DNA of 49,046 bases, taken from positions 1 through 49,046 of the IMG/VR virus record IMGVR_UViG_3300037467_000746. The stretch is one strand, 5' to 3'. Numbering within the stretch: position 1 is the first letter of the stretch; the number at the start of each line of letters is the position of its first letter. Below the pieces are notes generated by a model. That model did no database searches and was not told the origin of the DNA. It worked only from the letters and a program-made list of their open reading frames with translations. Position numbers and translations under genes: made by a program. Shown in pieces: positions 6,265-20,453 of this stretch. This DNA comes from a virus (Duplodnaviria > Caudoviricetes).

Positions 6265-7293
6265 ATGCAACAACTCAGATCCGGCGAAGTCTGCGCCGGA
6301 TACGGCGGACTCGCCCTCGCGATCGAAAAGGTATTCAACGCCGAAACAGCGTGGGTAAGCGAGTTCGACCCCGCACCCTCCAAGATCCTCGCCCACAGGT
6401 TCCCATCCGCGGTCAATCATGGGGACATGACACTGATCGACTGGGCAGCGATTGAACCCGTCGACGTCCTCGGCGGCGGCACCCCCTGCCAAGACCTCAG
6501 CACCGCGGGCAGGCGGGCAGGCATGACCGAAGGAACACGCTCGAACCTATGGGTTCACATGCGCGAAGCAATAGCCATTCAGCGGCCGCGATACGTGGTC
6601 TGGGAAAACGTTAGGGGAGCTTACAGTGCCGAAGCCAGTTGCGATCTGGAACAGTGCCCGGGATGTGTGGGAGACACCAGCGACGGAAGGACTTTTCTGC
6701 GAGCACTTGGACGTGTTCTCGGAGACCTTTCCGACCTCGGGTACGATGCTGAATGGCGCGGCCTACGCGCGTCCGACCTGGGCGCCCCGCACGGACGATT
6801 CAGGGTCTTTGTCCTTGCTGCCGACCGTAACTACCTCGGAGAGCACCGGTCCGGGCAATGGGCCGAACAAAACGGGCGGGGACAACTTACGCACGGCCGT
6901 GTCGCTGCTGCCGACGCCGACAACCCGGGACCACAAAGACAACACAATCAGGCGGGAACCACACCGGCCAGACGACACGGACACGCTAGCGAGGGCGTTG
7001 ACTGGGGTCAATACACCCGGGCTATTCGTCGATGGGAAGCCCTGCACGGAACCGCCCCTACCCCTGTTGAACTAAGCCCTACCGGCAAGCCGCGACTGTC
7101 AGCGAAGCTCGCAGAATGGATGATGGGCCTGTCCGATGGTTGGGTCACTGACGTGCCGGGTGTTAGCTGGGCTGACCAGCTGAAGGCATGCGGGAACGGG
7201 GTCGTTCCGCAGCAGGCCGCTGCAGCGCTGACGGACATGCTCGAAGCGTTCGAGGGTCGCCGGTTAGAGGCGCAGGCTCTCGTCGCCGCCTAA
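6265..7293 (+). CDS. C5-cytosine DNA methyltransferase (catalytic polypeptide)
   Basis: Motif I CAGYGG, IV GGTPCQD, VI WENV, VIII HGRFRVF, IX EWMMGL, X GNGVVP. Confidence 0.92.
   Translation: MQQLRSGEVCAGYGGLALAIEKVFNAETAWVSEFDPAPSKILAHRFPSAVNHGDMTLIDWAAIEPVDVLGGGTPCQDLSTAGRRAGMTEGTRSNLWVHMREAIAIQRPRYVVWENVRGAYSAEASCDLEQCPGCVGDTSDGRTFLRALGRVLGDLSDLGYDAEWRGLRASDLGAPHGRFRVFVLAADRNYLGEHRSGQWAEQNGRGQLTHGRVAAADADNPGPQRQHNQAGTTPARRHGHASEGVDWGQYTRAIRRWEALHGTAPTPVELSPTGKPRLSAKLAEWMMGLSDGWVTDVPGVSWADQLKACGNGVVPQQAAAALTDMLEAFEGRRLEAQALVAA
6626..7075 (+). CDS. overlapping-frame ORF inside the C5 MTase; putative target-recognition (beta) polypeptide
   Basis: GTG with RBS AGGGGAG; FSETFPTSGTMLNG motif and two LLPT(P/V)TT repeats. 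Confidence 0.65.
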   Translation: MPKPVAIWNSARDVWETPATEGLFCEHLDVFSETFPTSGTMLNGAAYARPTWAPRTDDSGSLSLLPTVTTSESTGPGNGPNKTGGDNLRTAVSLLPTPTTRDHKDNTIRREPHRPDDTDTLARALTGVNTPGLFVDGKPCTEPPLPLLN

Positions 7294-9915: not shown

Positions 9916-10614
9916 ATGCCGCTTTACTACCAAGACGATTACGTGACCCTCTACCACGGGGACTGCGCCGAAATCCTGCCCGCACTTAGTGTCACGGCTG
10001 ACCTTCTACTTACGGACCCGCCATATGGGGTGGACTTCAAAAGCGGTTGGAGTCAACACGCTAGGATTGCCAACGATGATGGGACCGCTGACGTGATGGG
10101 AATGATCGCCCTTGCCGTCAAGAAGCTGCGTCGTCACCGGCACGCCTACATTTTCGGTCCTTGGGACTTCACGGGCACTAACCTCACCGCCCACACGCAA
10201 CTCATTTGGGACAAGGGCATTGTCGGCATGGGCGATCTTTCGCTGCCCTGGGGGACGTCCCATGAGCCAATCACCTTCGCCGTCCACGAGGCATCAAAGG
10301 CAAACCGGGAACAGGGTAAAGGCCGCCTGTCCGCCAGGATGCGGCAAGGAACGGTTCTCCGCGTAGACCGCACTAACGGCGCGTCGAGCAAGAGACACCC
10401 CACGGAGAAGCCCGTGCCGCTCTTGCGGCAACTAATAGAGTCATCCTCCTGCTTCGGGGACGTGGTTCTTGATCCTTTCGCTGGTGTCGGCTCAACGCTC
10501 GTCGCCGCAACGCTGGAGGGGCGGAAATCCGTGGGCATCGAACTTGAAGAAAAATACTGCGAAATCGCTGCCACAAGGTGCTCGGAACTGAGCGAACTAG
10601 GAGTCATAGCATGA
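9916..10614 (+). CDS. beta-class N4-C/N6-A DNA methyltransferase
   Basis: TDPPY ... HPTEKP ... DPFAGVGST. Confidence 0.92.
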   Translation: MPLYYQDDYVTLYHGDCAEILPALSVTADLLLTDPPYGVDFKSGWSQHARIANDDGTADVMGMIALAVKKLRRHRHAYIFGPWDFTGTNLTAHTQLIWDKGIVGMGDLSLPWGTSHEPITFAVHEASKANREQGKGRLSARMRQGTVLRVDRTNGASSKRHPTEKPVPLLRQLIESSSCFGDVVLDPFAGVGSTLVAATLEGRKSVGIELEEKYCEIAATRCSELSELGVIA

Positions 10615-15835: not shown

Positions 15836-15874
15836 TCCCACCTAGCAGGGTTGGCGCCGGGCACCATGCCTCTA
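15836..15874 (+). promoter_or_regulatory. late-type promoter, leaderless (MTase 3)
   Basis: TCCCAC-N20-CACCAT-N6-ATG. Confidence 0.75.
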
Positions 15875-17475
15875 TGCGCCCAAACATTCACTTGCAGACC
15901 GACACCGTCACCGTCTGGCACGGCGACAGCATCGCCACCATGCGCGAGTTGCCCGACAACTCGATCGACTCCATCGTCACCGACCCGCCGTATGGCCTAG
16001 GTTTCATGGGGGCCAAATGGGATGCCCTACCGCCCGGGGAAGACTGGGCGCGCGAGTGCCTGCGCGTGTTGAAACCGGGCGGGCACCTGCTCGCGTTCGG
16101 TGGGTCACGGACGTGGCACCGGCTCGCCGTCGCCGTCGAGGATGCCGGGTTCGAGGTCCGCGACAGCATCGCATGGCTCTACGGCAGCGGTTTCCCGAAG
16201 TCCCTCGACGTCAGTAAGGCGATCGACAAAGCCGCAGGCGCCGAACGAACTGAAGGCGCCCGGGAATGGTCTGGCGGGCAGCGGTCCGCGGGCGTAATGG
16301 GAAATAACCTCGGGACGCAGACGCTCACAAAGTACGACACCCCGGCGACTGAGGCCGCGCGGGAGTGGCAGGGGTGGGGGACGGCGTTGAAGCCTGCGTT
16401 TGAGCCTGTCGTGGTCGGGCGTAAACCCCTGCAGGGGACGGTCGCGCAGAACGTCCAGACCTACGGGACCGGGGCGCTCAATATAGATGCGACGCGGATT
16501 ACCGCCGACGGCCCGCATCCTTCGCAGCCCACTTTGCAGGGTTCCGCTGATAGTAGTCGCGCTGGTAGCACGGACTGCACATGCCCCGAGCGCGAAGACG
16601 TCCAAACCACCCGCAGCCAGAACACTCCGCTTCGGGCTTCGTCTGACGCTTCACCCGCAGGTCATAGTGACCTTCTTCCCAGTGCTCGCGAACATGCTTC
16701 GAGTTGTTTACGACTTCCAGGTTCTCGGGCCGGTTATCCGTCTTCACCTTGTTCTTGTGGTGAACGTGCTCAGTGCGAAGTAGTGGTCGACCTAGCATCT
16801 GCTCGGCAACTAGTCGATGCTCCCGCATCTGACGACCGTCAACCAGCAGGCACACATATCCGTGAGAATCAATCCAAGCCATGCTTCAAGTGTACAGCAG
16901 GCAATGTTGAGCGGGAAGCCCCTGCTGGTCGTTGGCCGGCGAATGTGGTGTTGGATGACACGACCGCCCAAATACTCGACCAACAAAGCGGGATCAGCAA
17001 GACTGCCCCACGCGGCAAACCGAGTCAGGGCAAGCCTATGGCTAAAGGTGAAGCAACCGATATTTCAGCGTCTCGCCTGTACCCAACCACGCCCGCCGAG
17101 TATGACGACATGGGCGGCGCGTCGCGGTTCTTCAAGGTCGTCTCAGATGAGCATGGCGCGATCTCCGAGCACTTCCCGCGCGAGTTCGACGATACTTTCA
17201 TGTACGCATCCAAGGCGCCGAAGCGTGAGCGGCCGGTAGTGGATGGTGTCGCTCACCCGACCGTGAAGCCACTCGCGCTGATGCGGTGGCTCGTCAAACT
17301 TGTCACGCCGCCCGGGGGTGTGGTCTTGGACCCGTTCGAGGGCAGCGGCACGACGTTGGAAGCGTGCCTGTTGGAAGGCTTCGACCATGTCGGGATCGAA
17401 CGCGAGCAGGATTACCTGCCCCTGATAGAAGCACGACTCGACCGGCAGGCGGGGACGCTCCCGACCGCGGCGTAG
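15874..17475 (+). CDS. beta-class N4-C/N6-A DNA methyltransferase with large in-frame insertion
   Basis: TDPPY, YGSGFPKS, LKPAFEP, GRWPANV, HPTVKP, DPFEGSGTT; start moved to 15874 by the promoter motif and similarity to the other MTase N-termini. Confidence 0.88.
   Translation: MRPNIHLQTDTVTVWHGDSIATMRELPDNSIDSIVTDPPYGLGFMGAKWDALPPGEDWARECLRVLKPGGHLLAFGGSRTWHRLAVAVEDAGFEVRDSIAWLYGSGFPKSLDVSKAIDKAAGAERTEGAREWSGGQRSAGVMGNNLGTQTLTKYDTPATEAAREWQGWGTALKPAFEPVVVGRKPLQGTVAQNVQTYGTGALNIDATRITADGPHPSQPTLQGSADSSRAGSTDCTCPEREDVQTTRSQNTPLRASSDASPAGHSDLLPSAREHASSCLRLPGSRAGYPSSPCSCGERAQCEVVVDLASARQLVDAPASDDRQPAGTHIRENQSKPCFKCTAGNVEREAPAGRWPANVVLDDTTAQILDQQSGISKTAPRGKPSQGKPMAKGEATDISASRLYPTTPAEYDDMGGASRFFKVVSDEHGAISEHFPREFDDTFMYASKAPKRERPVVDGVAHPTVKPLALMRWLVKLVTPPGGVVLDPFEGSGTTLEACLLEGFDHVGIEREQDYLPLIEARLDRQAGTLPTAA
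16499..16882 (-). CDS. HNH endonuclease (HNH_3-type) with C-terminal Zn finger, nested antisense in MTase 3
   Basis: EHRLVAEQMLGRPL..EHVHHKNKVKTDNRPENL; CSGC..CSPC; TACACT six nt upstream of ATG. Confidence 0.85.
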   Translation of the reverse strand: MAWIDSHGYVCLLVDGRQMREHRLVAEQMLGRPLLRTEHVHHKNKVKTDNRPENLEVVNNSKHVREHWEEGHYDLRVKRQTKPEAECSGCGWFGRLRARGMCSPCYQRDYYQRNPAKWAAKDAGRRR

Positions 17476-17493
17476 GGCCGGACACGCGCCCCG

Positions 17494-17532
17494 TCCCACA
17501 CGGCCGGGTGCTGCGCCGTGAAGGTGGGGGTA
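17494..17532 (+). promoter_or_regulatory. late-type promoter, leaderless (sheath/tube operon)
   Basis: TCCCAC-N20-GAAGGT-N6-ATG. Confidence 0.8.
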
Positions 17533-17741
17533 TGAGCGGCATACGGCTACACAACCCCGGGCAGTTTGAACAGGTCTACGACCAGGCAGGGCACGTCCTC
17601 GCGGGCGGCGAGTCCCGCGTCGTCGATAAGACGGACGCCTACACCGACGACCTTGTTGGCCGGGGCGTGATCCTGTCGGCGCCTGCCGAGCCGTCGCTGA
17701 TCGCACGGCGCAAATCAAAGAACACCACGGAAGGTAACTGA
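17532..17741 (+). CDS. small tail-associated protein
   Basis: MSGIRLHNPGQF...; starts at the predicted +1 and precedes the sheath gene. Confidence 0.7.
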   Translation: MSGIRLHNPGQFEQVYDQAGHVLAGGESRVVDKTDAYTDDLVGRGVILSAPAEPSLIARRKSKNTTEGN

Positions 17742-17743
17742 TT

Positions 17744-19195
17744 ATGACGTCGATCGGCGTACAAGTATCAACGAGCCTGTCGAGCGGCCCGTCGAATGTG
17801 GGCACCCCCTCGGGTCGTCTTCACATCGCCGGGTTGACCGCGTACGGCCCGGCCGACAGGTCGGTGACTGTGAACAGCATCGCCAAGTTCGAAGCCCTGT
17901 ACGGGGCACGCACCGCCTATTCATCGAACGCTTATGACACGGCGCGGCTGTACTTCCAGGAGGGCGGCAACGAACTCGTCATGTCCCGCGTTGTCGGCCC
18001 GGCCGCGACGAAGGGCGCACTGACGCTGAAGGACTCGGCCGATGTGAACACGGTCAAGGTCGAAGCGAAAGACCCCGGCGCCGCGTCCGCTGATTACACG
18101 GTCACGGTCACGAACAACGGCGCAACCTTCGATGTGACGATCCGCCGCCTTGGTGTTGCCCTGCGCACCTACACCGGCCTCACGTCCCCGGCTGATTTTG
18201 TGCAGAAGGCCGCGACCGACACCTACGTCACCGTCACCAGCCTCGGCAGCGTCACGGCAGCGCCCGGGGATAACCCGAAGACCCTCGCCACGACCGCACT
18301 CTCGGCCGGCACCGACGACCGCGCATCTGTGACCGCGCAGCACCACATCGACGCCCTCGCCAAGGGTTCCGGCGCTGAGGGTGGGGCCGTGGCCGTACCC
18401 GGTTACACCGTGTCGCAGATCGGTTCCCTGCTGCTCGCGCACGCCGCCGCTACCGGCAAGGTCGCACTGCTCGCGCTCCCCGCGACCAGCACCCCCGACG
18501 AAGCCGCAGCTGCCGCCGCTGACCTGACCGCCGACGCGAACGGCGCCTACGGCGGCATCTTCTACCCGCACCTGATCATCCCCGACGGCGGCGGCACCCG
18601 CACCATCAGCCCCGAAGGCTACGTCGCTGCGGCCCGCGCCCGCGCGCACCGCGACACCGGCTTCTGGCAGGTACCTGCCGGCGACCGGGCAAAGACCCGT
18701 TGGGCTTTGGGTACGAACGTGCAGATCGACACCGTGCAGAACGGCGCCCTGGCTGACGCGCTCGTCAACGGCATCGTCACGACCGGGAACAGTGTCCGCC
18801 TGTACGGCTGGCAGTCGCTCAGCACGGACCGTGAGAACCTGGGCCTGCTCACCGCGCAGGACGCCCTGAACAACCTCACCCTGCAGGCCAAAGCCGCGCT
18901 TGAACCGTTCGTGTTCGCCACGAACGACGGCAAGGGCCACCTGCGCGGGTACATCGAGTCCGCGATCGTCGGCGTCCTCGACCCGATCGCGAAGCGGAAC
19001 GGCTTCTACGCCCTGCTCGATTCTGAGGATCAGGAGATCGACCCCGGCTACCGGGTCGACGTCGACGAGGCCCTGAACCCTGTCACCGCGCAGGCCGAGA
19101 ACAAGGTCATCGTGCAGTTCAGTGTGCGCCTGGCCCCGACGGCGCAGCTGATTCAGGTCGAAATCATCAAAGTGCCCCTCGCAGGCACCGTCTAA
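17744..19195 (+). CDS. contractile tail sheath protein
   Basis: FEALYG, YFQEGG..L.MSRVVG, WQVPAG, VRLYGWQSL, PFVF..NDG. Confidence 0.9.
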   Translation: MTSIGVQVSTSLSSGPSNVGTPSGRLHIAGLTAYGPADRSVTVNSIAKFEALYGARTAYSSNAYDTARLYFQEGGNELVMSRVVGPAATKGALTLKDSADVNTVKVEAKDPGAASADYTVTVTNNGATFDVTIRRLGVALRTYTGLTSPADFVQKAATDTYVTVTSLGSVTAAPGDNPKTLATTALSAGTDDRASVTAQHHIDALAKGSGAEGGAVAVPGYTVSQIGSLLLAHAAATGKVALLALPATSTPDEAAAAAADLTADANGAYGGIFYPHLIIPDGGGTRTISPEGYVAAARARAHRDTGFWQVPAGDRAKTRWALGTNVQIDTVQNGALADALVNGIVTTGNSVRLYGWQSLSTDRENLGLLTAQDALNNLTLQAKAALEPFVFATNDGKGHLRGYIESAIVGVLDPIAKRNGFYALLDSEDQEIDPGYRVDVDEALNPVTAQAENKVIVQFSVRLAPTAQLIQVEIIKVPLAGTV

Positions 19196-19680: not shown

Positions 19681-19743
19681 CCCCCAAGAGTGTGGGGCGG
19701 TGTGACCTCTCGTTCGGCCTGCTCAGTGCCAACACGTCACCCG

Positions 19744-19782
19744 TCCCACACTCGCGCCCGGCCAAAACAGAACCTTTCTACA
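19744..19782 (+). promoter_or_regulatory. late-type promoter, leaderless (MTase 4)
   Basis: TCCCAC-N20-GAACCT-N6-ATG. Confidence 0.75.
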
Positions 19783-20453
19783 TGCGCCCCTACTACTCAG
19801 ACGAACTCGTCACGCTCTACCATGGCGACAGTATCGACCTCGCAGATATGTGGACCGCGGCTGACGTGCTGGTCACAGACCCGCCCTACGGAATGGCCTA
19901 CCGTGACAGGCAAGGCGTATCGATAGCTAACGACGACACCCTCGATGCCCGCGACGCGGCCCTGAAGCTATGGGGATCTAAGCCTGCCTTGTGCTTCGGT
20001 ACGTGGAAGGTTGAACGCCCCGCCGCGACGAGGCAAGTCCTAGTGTGGGATAAGTGGGGCGGCGGCGGGACCGTCGGCAGCCCGTCCTCGCCGTGGGCGT
20101 ACTCGCACGAAGAAATATACATGCTCGGCGACTGGCCGAAGCTAAAGCCGGGCGGGCGGGCGCGCGAGGGCGGAAAGCCATCCCGAACGAGCGGTGTGCT
20201 TCGGGTAGCCAACTACAACACGCAGGCCCGAGATAGGCCAGACCATCCGACCCCGAAGCCGGTCGCGCTGATGGAATCACTGATTGAACGATGCCCTGAC
20301 GGCGTGATCGCTGACCCGTTCGCAGGGTCAGGTTCGACGCTGGTAGCCGCGAAGAATCTAGGTAGGCGCGCCGTTGGTGTTGAGCTAGACGAACGGTACT
20401 GCGAACTGATTGCGCAGCGGTGCAGCGCGTGGACGCTGGACTTCGCAGCTTAG
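19782..20453 (+). CDS. beta-class N4-C/N6-A DNA methyltransferase
   Basis: VTDPPY, HPTPKP, DPFAGSGST; start MRPYYSDELV matches the MTase 2 N-terminus. Confidence 0.9.
   Translation: MRPYYSDELVTLYHGDSIDLADMWTAADVLVTDPPYGMAYRDRQGVSIANDDTLDARDAALKLWGSKPALCFGTWKVERPAATRQVLVWDKWGGGGTVGSPSSPWAYSHEEIYMLGDWPKLKPGGRAREGGKPSRTSGVLRVANYNTQARDRPDHPTPKPVALMESLIERCPDGVIADPFAGSGSTLVAAKNLGRRAVGVELDERYCELIAQRCSAWTLDFAA

Follow-up and report, generated by a model that had tools for sequence, protein, structure and literature searches.

How can an intact endonuclease gene lie within a methyltransferase gene, on the opposite strand, without interrupting the reading frame of its host? The question is raised by a viral genome of 49,046 nucleotides, the whole of which we call the window. 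Its plus strand encodes a beta-class N6/N4 DNA methyltransferase of 533 amino acids (positions 15874-17475; Pfam N6_N4_Mtase, E 5e-28; phrog_67), and the frame of this gene stays open across a 142-codon insert (16501-16926) located between the conserved blocks GALNIDATRI (16471-16500) and GRWPANV (16927-16947). The catalytic DPPY motif (15982-15993) lies 5' of the insert, and the SAM-binding motif DPFEGSGTT (17329-17355) lies 3' of it, where it is reached only by read-through. The minus strand encodes an HNH_3 endonuclease of 127 amino acids with a C-terminal CxxC-x11-CxxC zinc finger (16499-16882; Pfam HNH_3, E 8e-11). A preliminary description, made from the letters of the window, had claimed an intact HNH and zinc-finger gene antisense to an uninterrupted methylase frame; both open reading frames confirm this, and the nested gene is real.

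The window is a 49-kb myovirus resembling Arthrobacter phage Jinkies. Among the 35 ORFs scanned, the gene order is terminase, portal, head, neck, methylase with insert, tail sheath and tube, so that the methylase belongs to the late structural operon and precedes the tail sheath gene. Jinkies has the same gene order and, at the matching position, a 421-amino-acid methylase without insert, and so represents an empty allele. Four DNA methyltransferase genes are found amid the head and tail genes of the window (6265-7293, 9916-10614, 15874-17475 and 19692-20453), and Jinkies has at least the last two of these positions in common; no restriction nuclease partner was seen among the 35 ORFs. A contig possibly from the source sequencing run spans 16069-17900 and is identical to the window, of which it is not independent, and no joint across the insert, as expected of an empty allele, was among those listed for the same sample. 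We also observed a 23-residue extra segment, KVVSDEHGAISEHFPREFDDTFM, encoded at about 17135-17200, that is missing from the methylases of Jinkies, L001 and L002 and resembles segments in P0002 and P0016, which suggests a mosaic methylase.

The methylase shows the beta-class signature, with DPPY ahead of FxGxG, and the fold of M.RsrI, M.PvuII and CcrM; the best Foldseek matches of its model are CcrM, M.BceJIV, M.RsrI and M.PvuII, all beta-class. The AlphaFold model, built with 87 sequences, is confident in the core at either end (pLDDT 80-97 over most of it) and only moderately so around GRWPANV (mean 65); the insert, predicted to be disordered, falls below 50 over residues 214-220 and 222-348. 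About 140 Ser/Cys-rich residues with atypical codons had been described between the two conserved blocks, and we indeed count 142, with 20 Ser and 8 Cys, and a methylase-frame GC3 of 0.44 inside the insert versus 0.82 and 0.74 outside. The GC content by codon position in the host frame (0.67/0.63/0.44) mirrors that of the HNH gene (0.67/0.43/0.63) read from the complementary strand, with the HNH wobble position facing host position 2 and HNH position 2 facing host position 3. The Ser/Cys/Pro-rich peptide is the shadow that the HNH gene and its promoter cast in the host frame. A role of the host-frame cysteines as a zinc clasp was not supported, since by eye CxC/CxxC is missing in L081 and L257 and partly in L255 and L339; these host-frame motifs are shadows cast from the reverse strand by an HNH Gly-Met-Cys and by the -10/ATG context.

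Across 20 relatives, the HNH residues H41, H42, N44, D49, N54, H63 and C102/C105 are invariant, and C87/C90 are kept at 90% or more. A sequence search of the PDB gave a single weak zinc-finger match (E 0.009), and a profile scan of the genome collection returned no close-clade member (best match 42%). The HNH gene has no stop codon of its own: codon pairs of the host frame in the conserved motif supply it, at three positions across carriers. In the window the stop is formed by the host Ile codon plus the next base, a Thr codon provides it in six carriers, and in two carriers the HNH gene overlaps the motif. A putative terminator downstream of the HNH gene was not counted, as the two overlapping matches at 16489-16507 compare with 1.4 expected.

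Alignment with insert-less homologues places the insertion in a loop between NID[AG]CR[IV] and GRWP that is hypervariable in empty alleles (median 36 amino acids, maximum 60, in 76 viral loci). The earlier suggestion of a tolerant loop therefore holds for the site itself, and that of a simple addition does not, as the insert largely replaces the native loop, over about 36-47 amino acids. In the window only REAPA, after NVE, remains of it, and from there on the DNA agrees with that of Jinkies in 47 of 48 bases. L092, L339 and P0033 retain some 30 native-like residues after the element, which argues for entry just after R[IV], with the loop shortened on entry or later. Target recognition resides in the variable part of beta-class enzymes; because the insert lies in this part, the activity or specificity of the methylase may suffer. 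The left flank of the window, codons LNIDATR (16477-16497, plus strand), corresponds in empty alleles to a conserved LNID[AG]CR, the predicted homing site. None of 16 carriers has D-x-C in this flank, versus 71 of 110 empty alleles; that the change gives carriers immunity would fit this count and is only a lead, because the overlap with the HNH stop codon explains part of it. In the nearest empty allele, that of Jinkies, this flank reads D-A-T-R, as in the carrier; the target predicted here may therefore not apply to it.

If the insert is read through, stop codons should be avoided in the host frame. Synonymous reshuffling of the window HNH gene produces a mean of 3.3 host-frame stops, with a probability of 0.005 of producing none (0.021 under a second null), and only 5 of 82 non-nested HNH genes from GC-rich loci are stop-free in the corresponding frame. 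An HNH codon that ends in TT, CT or TC gives rise to a host stop if the next codon begins with A. In ten carriers, such stop-making codons occur in 0 of 63 cases before an A-starting codon versus 165 of 339 elsewhere, and for Val alone in 0 of 22 versus 47 of 71; the carriers were chosen by HNH or promoter likeness and not by openness, and as they are related, the Fisher values (8e-17 and 2e-12) overstate their independence. Controls show no such avoidance: risky codons make up 265 of 810 before A versus 787 of 2441 elsewhere in 13 window genes, and the counts before A are 416 of 1141 in 131 non-nested GC-rich HNH genes and 428 of 997 in 85 AT-richer ones (33-43% over all controls). At several columns each of the two risky states is found in some carriers and no carrier combines them, as expected of compensating changes. 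These results bear out the earlier view that the host gene is left undisrupted, in the sense of an open frame.

Substitution rates separate the two readings of the same bases. Over 45 carrier pairs, the HNH frame has a mean pN of 0.28 and pS of 0.70 (60% identity), and the host frame has pN 0.41 and pS 0.27 (32% identity), which indicates that the inserted peptide matters only as a stop-free stretch. The C-terminal 58 methylase codons of ten carriers have pN 0.25 and pS 0.60. On these measures, the HNH gene and both methylase halves are under purifying selection, and the inserted host-frame peptide is not. DPPY is present in 13 of the 14 carriers with an N-terminus (DPPA in the other), and the SAM-binding motif in all 15 with a C-terminus. 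Such selection is consistent with a methylase that is active with its insert. For the window lineage itself, the ratio in the methylase core is 0.07 versus 0.05-0.10 in three empty alleles, and this purifying selection may predate the insertion.

An antisense gene at this location needs a promoter of its own, and the preliminary description had proposed TTCCCG, 17 nucleotides, TACACT, then six nucleotides to the ATG. The arrangement is as described, with a predicted -10 box at 16889-16894, a 17-nucleotide spacer at 16895-16911 and TTCCCG in the -35 position at 16912-16917, all on the minus strand. Conservation is limited to the -10 box, its distance to the ATG and some of the spacer: of 12 same-site carriers, 9 have TANNNT exactly six nucleotides ahead of the ATG, as six different hexamers. 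Host residues over the -10 box vary while the bases stay, which argues that the constraint acts on the DNA. In actinobacterial promoters, a -10 box at such a distance from the ATG gives a leaderless transcript, as is predicted here. TTCCCG was rejected as a conserved -35 box, since relatives lack it (two have TTGACT and TTGTCG), and a consensus scan found no sigma-70 site at the window HNH promoter. L257 has TTGACT-17-TATAAT, in L094 a Shine-Dalgarno sequence comes after TATAAT, and the promoters of L356 and L172 differ. A DNA pattern of the promoter alone gave six viral matches (three known carriers, one new carrier and two unrelated sequences); among its 12 matches in genome contigs, none was an element.

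The spacer between these boxes resembles the insertion site. On the HNH strand it reads like the codons L-N-I-[AG]-C-R, an inverted near-copy of the empty-site motif lacking its Asp codon. We slid 134 conserved seven-codon consensus segments from 25 empty GC-rich alleles, with up to four nucleotides deleted, along both strands of nine carriers. The insertion-site segment ranks first of the 134, at -29 to -13, with a mean of 12.8 of 17 positions, a likeness that requires a 3-nucleotide gap and was noticed in the data before the test; the 128 segments without an AACAT box score 10.2 +/- 0.4 (maximum 11.4), and under an initial null none of 293 reached the score of the insertion-site segment. Measured against the carriers' own flank, the spacers score 10.2, less than the 12.8 that they reach with the empty consensus. 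The distant L094 scores 12 of 17 at an equal distance from its -10 box, and by eye the likeness was not seen in L356 and L172. The window alone scores 13 of 17, which is not significant, with 114 of 300 shuffles as high. The wobble positions of the host frame within the spacer (-26 and -17) are invariant in all nine carriers. A look-alike of the presumptive homing site overlaps the nuclease promoter, as in an operator of the I-TevI type, and by this analogy the spacer is a candidate operator for autorepression of the HNH gene.

The antisense HNH-in-methylase layout, first described from the window, recurs elsewhere. At least 255 loci with HNH matches, window included, were found; at least 36 of them have an antisense ORF of 250 amino acids or more in the same relative frame, and among the loci listed at least 15 have a codon-aligned antisense ORF and none has one in the third frame. 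Where an HNH gene has antisense methylase matches on both sides, all 14 loci are open in one frame among the matches listed; these include the window and one near-duplicate pair, with nine at the window's site and five (two near-identical) at a second site. L264 (868-1359) is outside the read-through layout and was left out of the 14: an antisense HNH gene lies at the start of its methylase, the frame is open across the HNH gene and then has a stop before the methylase matches, and the gene looks split. L257, L339 and L356 are further same-site carriers with an open frame. At least 12 other loci have a same-strand HNH gene inside an open methylase, the layout known as ShiLan. One carrier, Mycobacterium phage MKC-IRE-02, is cultured; its element sits in a different gene neighbourhood, and the methylase alone is annotated there.

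Several related arrangements were observed alongside. Antisense HNH genes in an open host frame of this methylase family occur at the second site, the loop after GRWP, in L259, L268, L270, L176 and L137, and at a third, after GFPKSL, in L289. In L256 (1456-3627) and L176 (1557-4325, minus strand), one methylase ORF holds two hidden HNH genes, one same-strand and out of frame and one antisense, and both are read through; the same-strand gene of L176 directly follows NVNGCRV, where the window has its antisense insertion. The methylase of L092 has an extra antisense zinc-finger ORF after DPPY, apparently without the HNH core, and L172 has an intein-like insert with an out-of-frame same-strand ORF. 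Outside methylases, antisense HNH genes in the same relative frame lie in long ORFs of L082-L086, L125, L127, L133, L134, L136, L138, L147, L148, L150, L151, L195, L235, L277, L301 and L327, with terminase-, helicase- and primase-like hosts, several of them with intein-splicing matches. L316 (1321-3123, minus strand) has an antisense HNH gene in an open frame of an RtcB RNA ligase without intein match, the read-through layout in a non-methylase host. In L102, L117, L178, L260 and L265, codon-aligned antisense HNH genes lie in very long ORFs (GC 0.45-0.65), some with polyvalent-protein domains.

Carriers are scattered among empty alleles. Of the 120 nearest proteins, 7 (counting that of the window) carry the HNH-shadow loop, and none of the 76 viral loci recovered with the methylase search carries an HNH insert. 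On a quick methylase tree of 129 rows, built from conserved columns and with five long branches, the 16 carriers (12 from DNA, four judged from the protein loop) need eight changes, at least five of which are forced by the starred branches. The window methylase groups with six empty alleles (97% support), 26 empty alleles are closer to it than any carrier is, and a single carrier clade is rejected (AU p 3.4e-5, 38 of the 129 rows). The window and L081 share 78% identity in the HNH and 72% in conserved methylase columns; their placement as sisters is not rejected (AU p 0.076), and HNH and methylase identities correlate (Spearman 0.48). Mosaic recombination and loss could also have caused the scatter. 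The earlier reading of the gene as a homing endonuclease finds support in an intact HNH active site under purifying selection and in the scatter of carriers on the methylase tree.

We consider the HNH gene probably to be a homing cassette that lies antisense, does without splicing and carries a candidate operator. The methylase would be translated straight through, carrying the roughly 140 junk residues as a floppy loop, and the HNH protein would be produced from its own, likely leaderless, antisense transcript. The preliminary description further suggested that convergent transcription could regulate the methylase, on which the sequence evidence is neutral. During mixed infection or in a lysogen, it would nick or cut an empty allele in the DNA that encodes LNID[AG]CR, and the element would be copied into that allele by repair off the carrier. 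By analogy with I-TevI, the HNH protein would also bind the inverted target-like 17-mer between the -35 and -10 positions and block its own promoter; this operator is predicted to be poorly cut because its two boxes lie 3 nucleotides closer together. More tentatively, and with doubt, such antisense cassettes may form a third route of homing beside introns and inteins, in which a 17-nucleotide spacer would be at once methylase codons, promoter and inverted decoy for self-shutoff.

Other explanations start from the open frame itself. The preliminary description saw neither intein ends nor an intron, and the searches agree: the insert has no Pfam intein match to E 0.1 and no NCBIfam match, its ends read T...A/G and not the intein C/S...HN-[C/S/T], and no group I or II intron was matched in Rfam to E 1. 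An intron of a new type or a ribosome bypass, closed by an inverted-repeat stem, could still take the insert out of the message, and the left flank does pair with the spacer in the minimum-energy fold of the window. We regard this as very unlikely, given a fold z of -0.12, which is nothing unusual, the mere 45 nucleotides or so that lie outside the HNH ORF, and the pairing of the spacer with the carrier's own flank (-3.8 to -17.3 kcal/mol), which is weaker than with empty alleles in six of nine carriers; excision would also make strict stop avoidance needless. Alternatively, the frame may be kept open against polarity, as a stop would cut transcription of the tail sheath and tube genes, with the long methylase dead or impaired. 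The location upstream of these genes in a polycistronic structural operon would suit such an effect, as would the four methylases of the genome, one of which may be dispensable, and the description of the ShiLan methylase as non-essential (PMC11855218, section 4.1). It is nevertheless unlikely: the catalytic motifs are intact, pN/pS of the C-terminal half is 0.21-0.64 in all 45 carrier pairs though their HNH genes are near synonymous saturation, and in MKC-IRE-02 the gene neighbourhood is different.

The remaining alternatives concern the nuclease. The tight linkage of a nuclease and a methylase that are both under purifying selection might point to a compact pair resembling restriction-modification, possibly tuned by convergent transcription, in which the domesticated HNH protein cuts unmethylated DNA of a competitor or host and the methylase protects. 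This is improbable, as most alleles lack the HNH gene, similar HNH genes are antisense inside inteins, RtcB and other hosts, and the promoter copies the insertion site like homing operators do. The chance appears slimmer still that the element is old, vertically inherited and immobile, that loss together with gene shuffling made its distribution patchy and that the likeness of the spacer is an insertion scar. The correlation of HNH and methylase distances would fit such a history, as would the frequent recombination of phage methylase genes stated in the title of PMC9957025. An unused nuclease would not keep its active-site and zinc residues invariant at a pN/pS of about 0.4, however, nor does a scar account for spacer wobble positions that are the same in all nine carriers, and simple loss would not rebuild the native loop that carriers have mostly lost and empty neighbours possess.

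The homing cassette that we favour is not new in kind, as a same-strand version was published in 2025: the ShiLan domain, or 'hidden HNH', of mycobacteriophage DNA methylases (Arsenault, Gosselin and Gogarten, PMC11855218), first described in PMC9957025. Similar to the window, ShiLan lies in the same methylase family (Starcevich gp66 bears the motifs of the window methylase), with an HNH gene in another frame, a stop-free host frame, a predicted loop, a patchy spread and neither intein nor intron, and leaderless starts have been proposed for it (section 4.3). Its 5' end looks like the insertion site, and the likeness is greater in empty alleles, which its authors weighed as a sign of an intron (section 3.1); an operator would explain both this likeness and that of the window spacer. 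Unlike ShiLan, which is on the same strand in the third frame, the window HNH gene lies antisense and depends on a promoter of its own. ShiLan has 195 amino acids with zinc fingers on both sides and the window HNH 127 with one C-terminal zinc finger (46% identity over 89 residues), and the ShiLan site, GTALK/PAFEP, is about 30 codons ahead of that in the window, which follows NID[AG]CR (NIDATRI in the window). The window thus shares the general features of hidden HNH genes, an other-frame HNH in a stop-free host with patchy distribution, and departs from ShiLan in strand and site; judged by sequence, the element is an opposite-strand, new-site variant of a ShiLan-like hidden HNH and not ShiLan itself. 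The words 'antisense', 'opposite', 'reverse' and 'promoter' are absent from the main text of PMC11855218, and no antisense, intein-free HNH gene in a methylase was described in the literature searched, which lay mostly outside subscription journals and covered that paper by its main text.

Partial likenesses extend further. Antisense LAGLIDADG or VSR-like inteins of actinobacteriophages (Gosselin et al., bioRxiv 10.1101/2025.01.02.630785) likewise combine an opposite-strand homing nuclease with an open host frame; there a splicing domain removes the insert, whereas the window element has no splicing domain and its nuclease is an HNH. According to PMC2988022, a review, I-TevI of the phage T4 td intron has a copy of its homing site (15 of 20 nucleotides) over its own promoter, which it binds, cuts about 100-fold less and uses to repress itself, altered spacing preventing cleavage. 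I-TevI is a GIY-YIG enzyme of a group I intron with a non-coding, experimentally shown operator, whereas the candidate operator of the window doubles as methylase codons. The same review describes free-standing HNH mob endonucleases and nicking enzymes of the I-HmuI type, which have the same N-terminal HNH and C-terminal, presumably DNA-binding part and their own promoter; these are intergenic or intron-borne, whereas the window HNH gene is overlaid on an unbroken host frame. By analogy with them, the window HNH protein likely nicks DNA.

With direct evidence that both frames are under selection, the window carries the hidden HNH idea of 2025 over to the opposite strand. It provides a natural, repeated case for the origin and upkeep of fully nested antisense gene pairs, a long-standing question about overlapping genes. 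Annotation misses such genes, as the methylase resembles an ordinary long ORF. The cultured carrier MKC-IRE-02 and the syntenic empty allele of Jinkies open homing, read-through and autorepression to experiment, and if the spacer is indeed a decoy of the homing site, the targets of hidden nucleases would be readable from sequence.
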